From the IMG/VR virus record IMGVR_UViG_3300044731_000312: a DNA stretch of 64,000 nt. One strand, written 5' to 3'. The notes beneath the pieces were generated by a model. It saw nothing but the letters and a program-made list of their open reading frames with translations, was not told the DNA's origin and ran no database searches. The first letter of the stretch is position 1, and each line of letters starts with the position of its first letter. Made by a program: the position numbers and the translations under genes. Origin of the DNA: an uncultured virus (IMG/VR IMGVR_UViG_3300044731_000312) (Duplodnaviria > Heunggongvirae > Uroviricota > Caudoviricetes). Positions 13,270-63,823 of this stretch are shown here, piece after piece.

Positions 13270-13613
13270 AAGGGAAGATCAGTAGGTTCAGCGATAACAG
13301 TTGCCTTGCTTGCCGGTGCGCCTTCGCCTAGCTTGTCGATCTTCCAGCAATCGAGCGATGTAAACCACCCCATACCGCCTTCGCGCTTGTTGTAACCGCG
13401 TCCGCGCAAGTTTACTCGGGCTGTTACGGTGTCACCCACCTTAAAGCGGTCTAGCTCCTTGCACTTGTCTTGCGTAAACTGGCACTCCAGTTCCTGCGGG
13501 TATTCCGATTGCGTCTTGACTACGAAAGATCGCTTCTGGAATGTGTCTTTTACCTGCTGCGTCTGCCCAATGTGGATCAGCTCGCCCGTGATGTTGATTG
13601 CGTCGCTACTCAT
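13266..13613 (-). CDS. DUF3127-like single-stranded DNA-binding protein
   Basis: F.KR.FVV, YPQ, NLRGR, F.SL..WKI, acidic DLPF tail. Confidence 0.8.
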   Translation of the reverse strand: MSSDAINITGELIHIGQTQQVKDTFQKRSFVVKTQSEYPQELECQFTQDKCKELDRFKVGDTVTARVNLRGRGYNKREGGMGWFTSLDCWKIDKLGEGAPASKATVIAEPTDLPF

Positions 13614-26969: not shown

Positions 26970-27406
26970 TACTTCATTTCAAGTAGGGTATTGCAATACT
27001 TCTGCACATCGGTAATTGTTACGTGATGCCAGAATCCTTCATCGTCAAACTGTGCTGCGTCCTGTTCCGATAACCTGCTCTTGTCTGCCGTCGCTTTGAT
27101 GCAATCAATACCAAGCATAAGCGCGCTCATTGTGTGCGGTAACTCCTGCATTTGCCGATGCAATGCGGCTGCTTTTATCATATTGCTCTTCGCCCATTCG
27201 GTCAGGTCTAGCTCTGTAAACGTACCGCCATTGCTGATTGCTTTGTCCACAAGTGCCGCAAACTCTGCATCTTCTGCGTACATCTTCGACACGCCCGCCA
27301 TAATGCGGTCTTTGCCGTGTTCTTCAATGTATGCGCTGATCTTGCCTTGCCATTCTTGCAAGAGCTTCGCGTTCGCTACTGATAGCGGGATAGGTTCAAA
27401 ATTCAT
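26969..27406 (-). CDS. Second (paralogous) tail assembly chaperone
   Basis: Similar to 27760..28371 (P.TM....LGIDCI.AT.D.S.LSEQ...FW..VT...V..Y). Confidence 0.7.
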   Translation of the reverse strand: MNFEPIPLSVANAKLLQEWQGKISAYIEEHGKDRIMAGVSKMYAEDAEFAALVDKAISNGGTFTELDLTEWAKSNMIKAAALHRQMQELPHTMSALMLGIDCIKATADKSRLSEQDAAQFDDEGFWHHVTITDVQKYCNTLLEMK

Positions 27407-27758
27407 TGTGTGTCCTTCGAGGTTTGTTGAGACGCTTGCCGCTGGCTTTCTCGTACATGTATGCCTGTTCGCCCATGTCTCCAGTCCACCACGGCTTCTT
27501 GTAGTTAATTGCTTTTTGGATGTTTACCAGCTTGTAGAATTCCGCATACGCCATATCCATTACTTCGTAGTAACTCAATCCCCATTCGGGAGCGTATTGC
27601 AGAGCCATTGCCATAGATGATGCGGTAGCGGGTAACGTGTCGGTGTAGTTATCGTCTATGTCCATTGTAAAGTTAGGATGCTCTTGTGAGAATCCGTACT
27701 TGTCTAACAGCTTCACTTCGTGAATTTTCCACATAGTGACACGCCAAACTTCGTACAA
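27396..27758 (-). CDS. Tail chaperone gpT-like part, likely reached by +1 frameshift
   Basis: In the +1 frame of the chaperone and open back to TTT_CGC at 27778-27783. Confidence 0.65.
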   Translation of the reverse strand: MYEVWRVTMWKIHEVKLLDKYGFSQEHPNFTMDIDDNYTDTLPATASSMAMALQYAPEWGLSYYEVMDMAYAEFYKLVNIQKAINYKKPWWTGDMGEQAYMYEKASGKRLNKPRRTHNEF

Positions 27759-27759
27759 C

Positions 27760-28371
27760 TCATTGCTTGTGTGAGCTGCGAAATCGATCGACGTATTGAG
27801 CCACCTCCGAGGCCGTCACGTCCTGCCAGAATTCGCTATCGTTTGCGCTCTTGATAGCTTCCGATTCCTGCTCTGATAGCTTGCTATAATCGACCGTAGC
27901 GCGTATGCAGTCAATGCCTAGCAGCATAGACTCCATCGTTTGCGGGAAAGCGTCCAAGTTAAAGTACATCTGACGCCCTATCTCCGGGCTATCTTTCAGC
28001 AGTACGACTAGCGAATCTTTCAACTCCTGCTCTGCTATGGCCTTTGCTGCTTCCGCTGTCATTGGCTCGTATTCCAGCTCGGCTTGCTTTGCTGCTTTGC
28101 GCTGTTCGTTCTCATAGTCGTGCTGCGCCTTATGTGCCTCTATTAGGGCCACAATTCGCGCCTTAAGCGTTACGTTGTTGACCATGCCCACTTCGTCGAT
28201 TAGCTCGGCTAACTCTTCGCTACCGTGCCGCAATCGTGCAATCGTGCGGAGCATATACTCAACGCTTCGTTGCTGTATGTGATTGCTTATGCGCTGATAC
28301 CAGTCTTTGCAAATCTGTTGATTGCGGAGCGTGACCGGTAGATGGTCTATTTCTATGCCGTTAAGTTTCAT
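27760..28371 (-). CDS. Tail assembly chaperone (gpG-like)
   Basis: Between the major tail and TMP genes. Confidence 0.75.
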   Translation of the reverse strand: MKLNGIEIDHLPVTLRNQQICKDWYQRISNHIQQRSVEYMLRTIARLRHGSEELAELIDEVGMVNNVTLKARIVALIEAHKAQHDYENEQRKAAKQAELEYEPMTAEAAKAIAEQELKDSLVVLLKDSPEIGRQMYFNLDAFPQTMESMLLGIDCIRATVDYSKLSEQESEAIKSANDSEFWQDVTASEVAQYVDRFRSSHKQ

Positions 28372-28382
28372 TGTGTGTCCTT

Positions 28383-28434
28383 AAAAATAGGGGGCCAGTA
28401 ACTGACGGGACACAGATCGCCAGTACCAGCCCCC
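28383..28434 (-). terminator. Terminator-like hairpin whose loop is complementary to the downstream RBS
   Basis: GGGGGCTGGTACTGGCG-ATCTGTGTCC-CGTCAGTTACTGGCCCCC-TATTTTT. Confidence 0.75.
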
Positions 28435-28457
28435 AGTATGCGTATCGCTACGCTTGA

Positions 28458-29063
28458 TTATACAATGTCGAGATCGACAAGCATCTTACCGTAAGGATAT
28501 GTAGATGCTGCGATTGTAACAGTAACTGGTGTTACCGCTGTTGAACCGACATAATCAGCCAAAGCACCGGAAGGGATTACTAGATTTGTAGTAATGCTAG
28601 TTGCAATAGCCGTTAGCGTTGGCTTAACGTAAGCTGTACCGGCAAAGTTTACAGAGCCAGAAGACTTTGAAACCTTGACAAGTCCAGCCCATGCAAGACG
28701 CTTTCCATTGCTTGGCCCGTCTTTGATTGTTGCTCCACGTACAAGCATAGCAAGTTCTGTGCTACCAGCGGATGCACCGCTGATAATTTCGCCGTTTTCC
28801 ATAGTCAGCTCTTCTGTGCTAGCCGATGTTGTAGAGGCCGGTGCGTATGTCTGGACGAAGTCCCAGTACAGCTTGTCTGCTTGTACTTGGTCTAACGTCC
28901 ATGTGCGAATACCGTTGTCATCATTTGCCCCGTCTGACGTAATCTGCGATACGCAGGTGTAGACAGGAGTAGTCGATGCAAAGGTTGTCTGTGTTGTACC
29001 AACGGTAATCGTAAAGAACTCTGCCTTACGACCACCATTGATCACGAAACCAGATAGTGCCAT
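28458..29063 (-). CDS. Major tail protein
   Basis: Position; Thr/Ser-rich; homolog at 58980..59555 (L..ENG). Confidence 0.7.
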   Translation of the reverse strand: MALSGFVINGGRKAEFFTITVGTTQTTFASTTPVYTCVSQITSDGANDDNGIRTWTLDQVQADKLYWDFVQTYAPASTTSASTEELTMENGEIISGASAGSTELAMLVRGATIKDGPSNGKRLAWAGLVKVSKSSGSVNFAGTAYVKPTLTAIATSITTNLVIPSGALADYVGSTAVTPVTVTIAASTYPYGKMLVDLDIV

Positions 29064-29064
29064 T

Positions 29065-29814
29065 TCATTTCTCCATTTTAATTAGTGCTGTTAAATCGCG
29101 CACGTATGTATCGCGATAGAATGTATGCAGTCCGTGCTCTTCGTTGTTCTCTGCTAACCATCTGCCGATCAGAGTGGTGTTGCGTATGAGCTTCTTCTTG
29201 AGCACTTCACTTTCGCCGCTGTAACCATTGTGTGCGATTGTGATAGTTGTATCTACGATGCTGTAACCAGCGCCGCGGATAGTGTGTGCAATCTGCTCGT
29301 GTGCGTAACCTTCCCAGTAAAACTCTGGAGTGTTACGGTACATCCGCAGTTGTCCGATGTTAAAGTATTCGTTTTCGTTTGCTTCGCCGATCAGCTTCTT
29401 ATAGCATGATAGGGATGCTTGCCCCGCCATAAAACCACCTACGCCGCCGCCGTGCCTTTGTGTTGCCTCTGCTATGCCTTCGTGCTGTTGCTCGCATAGG
29501 TATTCGTCGCAGTCCATCCAAAATATCCATTCCTTCGTAGCCATTTGACCGCATAGATTGCGAGCTTGTGCAAAGCTGAATTTTCCCTTTTCGTACGTCC
29601 ACTCGCGCGAGCGGATCGTGTGATTTTCGTCAGTATGCTCTACCGCTTCGCTAACGTGGTGTTCGCGCCCCTGCTTATTTAGCAGGATGCAAACCTCCGC
29701 ATTCTTTGGTAGTGAACGGAGCATGCCCTGCATACTCTTGTGCATGTCATCATGCGATGCGATAACGCAAAAGCTGACGGGGAAGCTATCTAATTGTGTG
29801 TCCTGTGTGTCCAT
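29065..29814 (-). CDS. GT2 glycosyltransferase in the tail module
   Basis: FSFAQARN, WIFWMDCDE (DxD), RMYRN, GYAHEQI, HNGY. Confidence 0.85.
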   Translation of the reverse strand: MDTQDTQLDSFPVSFCVIASHDDMHKSMQGMLRSLPKNAEVCILLNKQGREHHVSEAVEHTDENHTIRSREWTYEKGKFSFAQARNLCGQMATKEWIFWMDCDEYLCEQQHEGIAEATQRHGGGVGGFMAGQASLSCYKKLIGEANENEYFNIGQLRMYRNTPEFYWEGYAHEQIAHTIRGAGYSIVDTTITIAHNGYSGESEVLKKKLIRNTTLIGRWLAENNEEHGLHTFYRDTYVRDLTALIKMEK

Positions 29815-29819
29815 GTGTC

Positions 29820-30284
29820 CTAGACTGGTCGTATAACAAAAGTGACAGTAGCAGCAACGCCCATCTGGATTTTATTGCTGCCCGTGTTGAATTCGCCTAC
29901 GTTGCCATCTACATGCATTGACGTGATAGCCGTGTAAAATCTTCCATCGTTATTGCTGCCTATTGCGTCGAGGTCATACGTCTCTAGCGCGTATTTGATA
30001 CGGCTTGCAATATCGCCCGCCCGCTCATTGGCTATGCCTAACTCGCTAGGGTCTGCTTCTATCATGGCGTTGCACATGATCTCGACCAATGCACGACCAA
30101 GCCCCAAGCTCAAGCCCGTCTCGGAGTCGGTGTCGTACTGCATCTGGCTAATGTATGGATAGCAGATAGTAGTCTTTGACTCATACGCGTCTGGTCTCCA
30201 TATACGGCGCGGCGTAAGATTGCCGTCGCTGTTAAGAGCATCAATGATTGTATCTACAATGTACTGCATCGAATTGGTCGCCAT
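29820..30284 (-). CDS. Tail terminator/completion protein (putative)
   Basis: Position. Confidence 0.55.
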   Translation of the reverse strand: MATNSMQYIVDTIIDALNSDGNLTPRRIWRPDAYESKTTICYPYISQMQYDTDSETGLSLGLGRALVEIMCNAMIEADPSELGIANERAGDIASRIKYALETYDLDAIGSNNDGRFYTAITSMHVDGNVGEFNTGSNKIQMGVAATVTFVIRPV

Positions 30285-58356: not shown

Positions 58357-58893
58357 TCAGAGTTTAGCGACGCCTCGAAACCACTTGACGGATTCGACCA
58401 CCTCCGTCAGGTCTTGGTCTTCCCAGAATTCGGAAACGGACATGAGTGTCTTTTGTTCTTCGGTCAGCTGGTTGGTGTCCATGATGACCTTCAGCACCTC
58501 AATACAGGCGTTGATGGCGTCGTCGTTGTCAAGGGGAAACTCTGTGATAGGATTGTTCAGCGCTTGCCAGATGTTCGGGAATGATTCCAGCAATTCGGAT
58601 TGTATGCGCTGTGTTACCATCGACTGCAGATCGTTGTCTGTGATGTTCGGGATAGCCTCCCGAATCTCTTTGCCAATCTGTGCAGCGTGCACGGAGTTAG
58701 CACCACCAGACAAGGTAACGATCTTGGCAGCATTGGGCGATTCCTGCAGGGCCTTCTGGAAAGCCGCGTTCTGGCCTAAACTGCGAAGCGTTGCGATGGG
58801 GTTCTCAACTGCCTTGATGATACGGCGCGAGATGATGTTCTTCAGCGGGATCTCTTTCTGTTCACCCACGAAATAGAGTTTAATCGACGGCAT
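58357..58893 (-). CDS. Tail assembly chaperone (start MPSIK)
   Basis: Between MTP and TMP; FW.D....EV similar to A's chaperone. Confidence 0.75.
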   Translation of the reverse strand: MPSIKLYFVGEQKEIPLKNIISRRIIKAVENPIATLRSLGQNAAFQKALQESPNAAKIVTLSGGANSVHAAQIGKEIREAIPNITDNDLQSMVTQRIQSELLESFPNIWQALNNPITEFPLDNDDAINACIEVLKVIMDTNQLTEEQKTLMSVSEFWEDQDLTEVVESVKWFRGVAKL

Positions 58894-58917
58894 GACAAGT
58901 CCTCTTGTTACGGCATG

Positions 58918-58963
58918 AAAAACAAAATAGGCAGGGGCCGCCATGCCGCGAACGGCCCCCACC
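58918..58963 (-). terminator. Terminator-like hairpin with loop complementary to the chaperone start region
   Basis: GGTGGGGGCCGTT-CGCGGCAT-GGCGGCCCCTGCC-TATTTTGTTTTT. Confidence 0.75.
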
Positions 58964-58979
58964 GGGTAACCTCGGAAGG

Positions 58980-59555
58980 TTACTTATAAACTACAGTTCC
59001 GTATGGAATTGTACCGAACAGTGTAACAGGTACGGCTGAAGTCATAAAGTCAGTGAAGTAGGTTGCAGCAAGCGTGATAGGGTTCTGCAGCTTGAAGCCT
59101 TCGAAAGACAACGTTACTCGGTTGTATGTTTCACCAGCCTGCGTCCATCCGCCAGATTCGTTGTTCAGGCGCTGTGGGAAAACGCCTACCTTACGAACGG
59201 CTGTGTTTTGCTGGTTTCCACCACCAGCAAGACCGCCCTTGACTGCACAGATTAGCTTCTGGTTCTGAGCAGAGCCTGTTTCGTTTGTGCCGTTCTCGAG
59301 AAGCAAGTCCTCGATAGCGCCAGCGCCTGTGTTGGTTGCTGTCTCGATAAACGTCTGCAGCGCCTGCGTGTCTTCGACGTGCTCGATAGAAATCGAGTAA
59401 GCACCAGAAGCAGCGTCACGTGTTACATCTGTTGAGATGATGTTATCATTGAGTTTGTAGAGGTATGTCGAACCGACGCCAATAGTGCCGGTATCTTCGA
59501 CAGTCCATGCGCCGAAGGTATTACCACCGGCGACGACCCGTGTTGCGAGTGCCAT
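58980..59555 (-). CDS. Major tail protein
   Basis: Position; homolog of 28458..29063. Confidence 0.7.
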   Translation of the reverse strand: MALATRVVAGGNTFGAWTVEDTGTIGVGSTYLYKLNDNIISTDVTRDAASGAYSISIEHVEDTQALQTFIETATNTGAGAIEDLLLENGTNETGSAQNQKLICAVKGGLAGGGNQQNTAVRKVGVFPQRLNNESGGWTQAGETYNRVTLSFEGFKLQNPITLAATYFTDFMTSAVPVTLFGTIPYGTVVYK

Positions 59556-60309: not shown

Positions 60310-60508
60310 CTTTCGCTTGTGATGGTTCGTTTAAGAATTGCCCGATGATGATTTCCTGAACATCACGAACAAAGAATTCCTGCACGGTCGTACTGGTGAC
60401 GTCCCGTGGCCTGTGATCCGTGAACAGATCCGAGTCGACCCTGACGTCGATGTCGCCGTAGACGCTGTGGATCTGGCGAAGATGCTTCATCAGTTCAGAT
60501 ACAGTCAT
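60269..60508 (-). CDS. Small hypothetical protein present in B only
   Basis: MTV.EL...L......GD..V phage motif; absent at this position in A. Confidence 0.55.
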   Translation of the reverse strand: MTVSELMKHLRQIHSVYGDIDVRVDSDLFTDHRPRDVTSTTVQEFFVRDVQEIIIGQFLNEPSQAKVVLYVGNEPKLRA

Positions 60509-62473: not shown

Positions 62474-62756
62474 CTAATTGGTTTCCCTTCGCTGTTTTGT
62501 AGGATTGCCAGGCCATTTCTTCAAACAACCTTGTCCGCTCTTCATTGTGATCTTGCCCAGTGGCAGCCTCAAAAGCGTGGTACCATTCGTGCAAGAAGGT
62601 CTTGAGTTGCGTTTCTATGGTCGTGAGCCGGCCGTCTACGTGGGTTGCTATGCGGATGGTGTGTTTCTCAGCGTCGCACTCGCCATAGGCACCGCGCATC
62701 TTGCACATCCGCACACGCCATGTGTGGCCTCCGAGTTTGAACGACGTGGGGATCAT
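62466..62756 (-). CDS. Small HExxH metallopeptidase-like protein
   Basis: TFLHEWYHA. Confidence 0.75.
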   Translation of the reverse strand: MIPTSFKLGGHTWRVRMCKMRGAYGECDAEKHTIRIATHVDGRLTTIETQLKTFLHEWYHAFEAATGQDHNEERTRLFEEMAWQSYKTAKGNQLDV

Positions 62757-63823
62757 CTCACTTCTCCGTCAATAATCATCTTGTTGTAAACTGTGAAACG
62801 TCCCGAGTCTTGCAGGTCGACAAGAGCGAACCCGTGATTCCAGCCGTTACGAGCCGCGTAGAAAGGATTCAAATCGCACAGGCACCCAACAGACCACCCT
62901 GCTATGAAAGACCCGTCTAAGGGCCTGCGAATCATGTCCGTGGACGTTCTATGCACGTGACCCACTAGGATATTGTCGAGAGCCTTCATTCGGTAGTTTC
63001 GCCCTGGTGTTACACCACCACCACCAAACCACTCATGGCCGTGATCTATCCACAGCTGGCCAGCCTGCATCTTGCCACGTTTTGATACCCACTCGATACC
63101 GATCTCACGTAGTTTCAGAAACTCCTCGAGGTAAACGGTGCCGATTAGTTCCTTCGCCTTACGTGCAAGGTAGCGCTGGTATCTTTCTTCGTGGTTGCCC
63201 TCACGGTAGACGATGCGTACCTTATCACCAAAGAAAGCCCGCAGGTGTTTCAGCATGGCGATAGCAACATCCAATTCCCACTTCCAAGAACGTTTCCCTT
63301 CGACCTTCTCGTGGTCTGACAGGTTATAAACGTCGAGCATATCGCCGTTTAATACCAGCGTGTCTATGCCCTCATCACGGAGTGTTTCTATGGCTGTCCA
63401 GTATGCCCCGTAGAAATTGCCGGCCGAGTCCTTGCGTAGGTCATGGAATGGCCAGTGTGCATCCGAGATGATGCCTATCTTACCAGGTCTAATTTCGCAT
63501 ACTTCGTCATCACGTAATTCGCCTGCTATGGCATCGTCGAAGGGAACAGCCCCGTATTCGGTAGGTGGTGCTTCGGCTATTCGTAGTTTCTTAAGTGCTT
63601 CGGCCTCACGTTCATGGACGCTGTTTAGTGCTGCCTTTGCCTTCGCAATCTTCGTTTTTATTACTTCGGGATTCTCAGCAGCGAAGGCGTGGGCGTTCTT
63701 GATTTCAGCGCCGCGTATTATGCCACCCTTTATCTGGGATTTCTTCATACGAGCCGCACGGTAATCTTCGATGATTTCCCGCACGGCATCGTACTCTACA
63801 TCGGACAGGCGTAAACGCGGCAT
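62753..63823 (-). CDS. Calcineurin-like metallophosphoesterase
   Basis: SDAH, NGDMLD, GNHE, HGH, GHVH. Confidence 0.9.
   Translation of the reverse strand: MPRLRLSDVEYDAVREIIEDYRAARMKKSQIKGGIIRGAEIKNAHAFAAENPEVIKTKIAKAKAALNSVHEREAEALKKLRIAEAPPTEYGAVPFDDAIAGELRDDEVCEIRPGKIGIISDAHWPFHDLRKDSAGNFYGAYWTAIETLRDEGIDTLVLNGDMLDVYNLSDHEKVEGKRSWKWELDVAIAMLKHLRAFFGDKVRIVYREGNHEERYQRYLARKAKELIGTVYLEEFLKLREIGIEWVSKRGKMQAGQLWIDHGHEWFGGGGVTPGRNYRMKALDNILVGHVHRTSTDMIRRPLDGSFIAGWSVGCLCDLNPFYAARNGWNHGFALVDLQDSGRFTVYNKMIIDGEVR

Follow-up and report, generated by a model that had tools for sequence, protein, structure and literature searches.

The window analysed here, 64,000 nucleotides of uncultured Caudoviricetes DNA (IMG/VR IMGVR_UViG_3300044731_000312), consists of two related phage sequences joined at ~32344. 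Positions 1-32344, hereafter phage A, correspond to virus record G001 at 100%, and the window past 32344 resembles G011 at about 90% identity. The locus of interest lies in the tail module of phage A, all of it on the minus strand, in the order tail terminator-like gene, GT2, tube, an 86-nt gap, tail assembly chaperone (TAC), +1-frame extension, TAC paralogue (TAC2) and tape measure gene. The genes concerned are:

29065..29814, minus strand: GT2-like glycosyltransferase gene, 249 aa (Pfam PF00535 at E 1.7e-4, slightly short of the curated cut-off; PHROG 13126)
28458..29063, minus strand: major tail tube gene, 201 aa, source of the element described below, placed by synteny between tail terminator/GT2 and tape measure gene; stop codon at 28460-28458
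27760..28371, minus strand: TAC (G-like) gene, 203 aa, ATG at 28371, assigned from its position between tube and tape measure and from a conserved frameshift site
27780..27783, minus strand: candidate +1 frameshift site TTT-C (in-frame TTT, then C/T), from G into the T-like frame
27396..27782, minus strand: T-like extension, an open +1 frame of 128 codons
26969..27406, minus strand: TAC2, 145 aa (43% identity over 56 aa to TAC, E 5e-15)

The AlphaFold model of the tube (pLDDT 82) has phage tail and connector structures as its top Foldseek rows, several of them named tail tubes, with no row at E<=0.001 and no family match for the protein. INPHARED holds no match to the tube in any isolated phage, the sole genome match being a MAG contig of a lineage with a short-loop hairpin (see below). 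Family searches with TAC returned no match, and its assignment is supported by the conserved UUU-Y site: TTT-Y with a +1 frame open for 99-128 codons occurs in 21/21 chaperone ends examined, in every lineage, so that a conserved candidate site near the 3' end and an open frame before the tape measure gene are both present, as in G/GT pairs. A published review lists UUU-Y among the sequences prone to +1 shifting in bacteria, and considers a +1 shift in the chaperone gene of one archaeal virus very likely (PMC5009743). The arrangement is that of lambda G/GT, a chaperone gene and then a frameshift extension before the tape measure gene, but with a candidate +1 UUU-Y site in place of lambda's usual -1 site; neither lambda G nor GT is found in virions, and the proportion of the two proteins is critical (PMC5009743). 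An equivalent UUU-Y candidate is found in the second phage of the window at 58357-58380 (minus strand), and a shorter, TAC2-type paralogue following the G/GT pair is present in lineages A, D and E and absent from B, C and F.

Between the tube stop and the TAC start, and at three starts in the module, we identified the following features:

28440..28453, minus strand: small 5-bp hairpin with a GNRA-type tetraloop, directly after the tube stop
28390..28434, minus strand: long 17-bp hairpin, terminator-like or stabilising
28408..28417, minus strand: its 10-nt apical loop, ATCTGTGTCC, predicted to be unpaired (P>0.93)
28414-28408, minus strand: putative anti-RBS seed TGTGTCC, the 3' 7 nt of the loop
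28383..28389, minus strand: U-rich tract TATTTTT after the long stem, read from the sequence and weaker in relatives
28374..28380, minus strand: target 1, GGACACA, SD plus spacer of TAC
27409..27415, minus strand: target 2, GGACACA at the TAC2 RBS
29797..29820, minus strand: target 3, GGACACA repeated three times across the RBS and opening codons of GT2 (29820-29814, 29812-29806 and 29803-29797)

Across 17 distinct rows of relatives the small stem is invariant while its tetraloop varies (GCGA, GTAA, GGAA or GCAA); it may be a 5'-protecting stem. The long stem is paired in 99.7% of cells and shows two-sided changes in 8/17 pairs among 17 distinct relatives. In phage A the U-rich tract is followed by AAGGACACACAATG, and the gap region folds with a z of -3.17. 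Together the small hairpin, long hairpin and U-tail look like a stable RNA of about 65 nt, as judged from the predicted fold. The initial annotation called the long hairpin a terminator, a description that stands in part: stem and tract (6 T in 7) are present in phage A, but a consensus terminator scan did not list the hairpin, whose 10-nt loop exceeds 8 nt, and some relatives, lineages C and G among them, have a weak U-tract or none. No Rfam match was obtained at E<=5 within 27200-30000, and a covariance model of lineage A recovered just the window's own copy among 25 sources, so the sequence of the element is not conserved across lineages. Structure-stimulated read-through of the tube stop was also considered and ruled out, the gap being 81-86 nt and in differing frames.

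The seed is the exact complement of the GGACACA before the TAC ATG, 9 nt downstream of the hairpin, and the same heptamer precedes TAC2 and occurs three times at the GT2 start; these matches, first pointed out in the initial annotation, were confirmed to the base, coordinates included. The GT2 target lies 1.4 kb upstream of the hairpin and the TAC2 target 1 kb downstream. GGACACA is found seven times on the phage A sense strand against about two expected, 5/7 of them at these three starts, and its complement occurs there once, in the loop. The seed is invariant in 31/31 A-type loci, which include many near-copies, unlike loop positions 2-3, which vary. The TAC target is exact in 28/31 loci, the other three carrying a G-U-compatible A>G; the TAC2 target is exact in 26/26 loci with a start found (5/31 being absent or short), and at least one exact copy is present in 30/30 loci reaching the GT2 start. 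Every change within A-type targets replaces A by G opposite a U, a substitution that preserves pairing on this strand alone, and the bases immediately 3' of the target vary freely. The 16S anti-SD likewise accepts A>G at SD position 3. As the loop-target helix shows no two-sided change within lineage A (0/7 pairs), this lineage alone proves little. The 7-bp duplex is worth about -10.6 kcal/mol, and in local folds the loop and one copy of each target are open, the latter largely so.

We then asked how selective the match is among start regions, called with a simple purpose-made gene caller. A 7-bp Watson-Crick match to the loop occurs in 0.9% of shuffled start regions, and background matches amount to between 5/559 and 10/613 starts for lineages A, D, E and F. 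With this threshold the matching starts are exactly GT2, TAC and TAC2 in G001 (3/45) and G002 (3/46), and GT2 and TAC2 in G005 (2/32), where TAC has a G-U form. By duplex energy the targets rank 2-4 of 45 in G001, 1-3 of 32 in G005, 3-5 of 46 in G002, 2-3 of 23 in G006 and 2-3 of 50 in G003, with one or two unrelated starts ahead of them in 4/5 genomes of lineages A, C, D and E. First by energy in phage A is the start at window position 13613 (minus strand) of a 115-aa gene, with the G-U form GGGCACA at its RBS. A search of 13 genomes for a second such loop gave no convincing case. After a 141-aa gene of G014 (L151/L152) there is a 21-bp hairpin with a 30-nt C-rich loop that has 7 bp to five start regions, matches which may be due to chance given the length of the loop.

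More distant relatives, obtained by tube and GT2 scans (tube identity 23-62%) and in the more distant lineages sampled through A3, A5 and A7 only, supply the two-sided changes that lineage A lacks. Across eight lineages the element sequence shifts and the target sequences shift to match. Lineage A has TGTGTCC with GGACACA at GT2, TAC and TAC2. Lineage D (L076) has the loop CTTGTCC with GGACAAG before GT2, TAC (twice) and TAC2, and lineage E (L072) the loop CCTGCCC with GGGCAGG before GT2 and TAC2, its adjacent TAC having no match to the loop; D and E are sister lineages at 61% tube identity with differing seeds, each matched. Lineage F (L092) carries TCCTCGTT/AACGAGGA at GT2, with 8 bp to the GT2 RBS and 7 bp (one G-U) to TAC, and has no TAC paralogue, hence no third target. 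Lineage C, in which the element was chosen by eye in the first hairpin, has its match in that small hairpin (GTGGCTCCG/CGGAGCCAC, 9-11 bp, to TAC and GT2). In C3 (L162) the small hairpin is complementary to TAC and the long loop, over its full 7 nt, to a site upstream of GT2 (TCCAAGT/ACTTGGA). Lineage G (L223/L228), found after the hypothesis was set, has the loop TTTGACAGG and the pair TTTGACAG/CTGTCAAA; two targets precede TAC, and GT2 has none. In lineage H (L215) there are just 5 G-C pairs to GT2 and nothing at TAC. Lineage B is represented in the window itself:

58886..58982, minus strand: lineage B element of the second phage, seed CGGCATG, with the target CATGCCG present twice (sequence match)

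One CATGCCG copy follows the U-tract and the other lies over the TAC start codon; L040/L041 carry a G-U-compatible variant of the seed/target pair. GT2 was rejected as a lineage B target, its 6-7 bp with two G-U pairs being within background (204/509). The highest-scoring starts in lineage B genomes belong to other genes, in particular metallophosphoesterase (window 62753-63823, minus strand), whose start has 7-9 bp to the tube hairpin loop in G004, G010 and G011 and is possibly an extra target in this lineage. A frame of ~65 codons between the tail terminator gene and GT2, overlapping the GT2 start, was also seen in lineages B and C (window ~60310-60505, minus strand; also L027, L034, L041, L156-L158 and L162).

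To assess lineage-specific matching, every element was scored against the start regions of every lineage, giving 40,320 assignments for eight lineages; short-loop and no-gap lineages, which have no loop to score, were excluded. The true pairing was the best of all for GT2 (1/40320) and ranked 10/40320 for TAC, with no signal at the tube's own start, used as a control (24495/40320). Restricting the test to the long-hairpin loop gave 1-4/40320 for GT2 and 31-95/40320 for TAC, and leaving out lineages A and C gave 1/720 and 10/720, respectively. None of 133 cross-lineage pairs had 7 Watson-Crick bp. The shared ancestry of the lineages weakens rather than inflates this test, which demands lineage-specific matching. 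The loop-RBS pairing is thus retained among relatives, with two-sided changes between lineages, contrary to the refuting condition named in the initial annotation. As far as sequence comparison can speak, the complementarity is real, covarying, gene-selective and beyond chance, and GT2 is a conserved target, more than a side match.

A shared RBS motif could instead mark a protein site, such as CsrA-like GGA repeats or a phage repressor site, or a DNA site, with the loop match a coincidence or duplication scar. The A and D targets are indeed repeated GGA motifs, and GGAC is a common SD in this group, tube RBSs included, but targets in B, E and G share no GGA motif, the motif differs by lineage with the loop tracking the change, the permutation tests favour lineage-specific loop/target matching, and the G-U-type variation indicates RNA. 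We regard this explanation as very improbable.

The initial annotation proposed an H-type pseudoknot in which the loop, on read-through RNA, base-pairs with the RBS just downstream on the same molecule and so tunes the ratio of tube to chaperone; as a sole explanation, the other matches would be by-products. This account is incomplete. Lineages A, B, D and G each have a local target after the stem, and between them loop and downstream site change on both sides (there being no such change within A and no local pairing in E). B and G match the chaperone alone, and by a rough Dirks-Pierce estimate the knot is favoured by about 7.6 kcal/mol. However, lineage E lacks a local target yet matches GT2 and TAC2 perfectly, so a local pseudoknot alone is insufficient, and F pairs best with GT2. 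The covariation is also stronger at GT2 than at TAC, and as GT2 is not a paralogue, shared descent cannot supply the same RBS. Geometry is a further constraint, since the 9-nt linker must span about 48 A across the 17-bp stem against a maximal reach of 59-70 A, by rough estimate near the limit. A purely local knot therefore appears quite unlikely, and the other option raised in that annotation, pairing in trans, extended here to long-range pairing and to several RBSs, fits better.

In the reading we consider probable, the tube mRNA 3' end carries a multi-target anti-RBS element that damps non-structural tail factors by long-range or trans pairing; pairing in vivo, repression, termination and the cis or trans route are what we infer from the observed complementarity. 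The tube mRNA would end, via partial termination or processing, in a stable hairpin exposing the seed, which would pair with SD plus spacer of GT2, TAC and TAC2 in the same operon and lower their translation. The tube's own RBS would be spared, so that helper-protein output would be kept below, and coupled to, the amount of tube mRNA. Targets in A, C, D and E start 9-11 nt before the ATG and cover SD and spacer, and pairing over these elements blocks 30S loading. Because the U-tract is transcribed before the TAC target, pairing at that target cannot decide termination and would act on read-through RNA, as a cis pseudoknot over the adjacent RBS, or from another molecule. GT2 and TAC2 would be reached by long-range cis pairing (1-1.4 kb) or in trans by terminated or processed RNA. 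Since three sites cannot occupy one loop simultaneously, either they compete in cis, and the terminated RNA silences the GT2 start that it carries, or an excess of terminated or processed tube RNA works in trans. No sigma-70-like site was found at 9/12 on the sense strand within GT2. The products of the target genes are probably not virion parts, and GT2 may act in modifying the tube, which is rich in Thr and Ser. Against damping by long-range or trans pairing, 7 bp make a short duplex for action in trans unless an RNA chaperone assists, and target sets differ, B and G having no significant GT2 match and E no TAC match.

Pairing could also be real with an output other than simple repression, namely mRNA cleavage, Rho termination, or an upstream duplicate target serving as decoy or activator that frees the true RBS. 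Targets are often duplicated with one copy upstream of the RBS (B, D, G, and GT2 in A), and the IncI/IncB repZ pseudoknots are a precedent for activator-type pairing that frees an RBS. OppZ works partly via Rho (PMC7398697). The position of the A, C, D and E targets over the SD is, however, that of a translational repressor, and we judge these other outputs unlikely. A stronger form of the anti-RBS reading is a recodable 'lock and key' regulon, in which the loop on the abundant tube mRNA end is a master anti-RBS, acting in trans or over kilobases, for chosen assembly helpers. Every lineage would rewrite seed and all target RBSs together and pick which genes bear the lock, and mRNA dose would act as a timer, helper synthesis falling as late mRNA builds up. 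We hold this form tentatively, at somewhat under even chances.

Several known systems resemble parts of this arrangement. Intrinsic terminators lie between the tail tube and chaperone genes of lambdoid phages, and the element likewise has hairpin and U-tract at the same position, which is all that five related lineages possess, but differs in its long, sequence-constrained loop that tracks several RBSs. In the hok fbi fold-back, the H-type RBS-sequestering pseudoknots of rpsO, preQ1 and SAM-II, and the repZ activator pseudoknot, a loop or 3' end pairs with an initiation region, as predicted here; each acts on one site in cis, mostly together with a ligand or an antisense RNA, whereas here there are several targets and no ligand or antisense RNA was seen. 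OppZ of Vibrio cholerae, which requires RNase E release and Hfq, uses its 5' end to pair with oppB in the operon it comes from and leaves oppA unaffected (PMC7398697; PMC9438474). Like the 3'UTR-derived autoregulatory sRNAs OppZ and CarZ, the element would set RNA from an operon 3' end against a start in the same operon while sparing the bulk gene (discoordinate expression). It shares with OppZ a location at a putative mRNA 3' end in a terminator-like structure, with an imperfect U-tract, and a conserved seed that matches start regions within the operon it belongs to. Unlike in OppZ, the predicted seed is the hairpin's own apical loop, lies mid-operon in a phage structural module, has up to three targets on both sides and is recoded between lineages. 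In the MS2 Min Jou interaction a 7-nt long-range pairing shuts the RBS of a minor gene relative to the major structural gene; it is situated within the coat coding region, reaches a single target some 300 nt distant, and ribosomes open it (PMC11339067). A 7-nt pairing in phage RNA over a helper-gene RBS is predicted here too, but the element is non-coding, loop-presented, multi-target and in a DNA phage. A literature search outside subscription journals found no earlier description of such an element.

Ratios of structural to helper proteins made from one long late transcript in tailed phages are largely ascribed to terminators, RBS strength and frameshifts. If correct, our reading would add a multi-target RNA-RNA layer to this control, visible only through the covariation of seed and targets, up to four separate sites in all. 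It provides compensatory pairs open to direct testing, a search rule for other phage groups (compare the loop following the major structural gene with every start), and naturally occurring orthogonal seed/RBS sets from which synthetic riboregulators could be built.

The element is dispensable, as ten other lineages lack it: in five the tube gene is followed by a simple hairpin with a short loop, and in the other five no gap follows it. In 4/5 short-loop lineages the start of GT2 and the preceding stop codon overlap, which may be an alternative means of setting GT2 output. In L077, L081, L083, L214 and L217 a gene for a 280-290 aa membrane-type protein overlaps the tube stop and takes the place of the hairpin gap. 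Within the first 25 tube codons of lineage A there is a further long hairpin (~28995-29045, minus strand; at least 17 bp, 7-nt loop), with similar folds in D and E, possibly a processing or translation signal.
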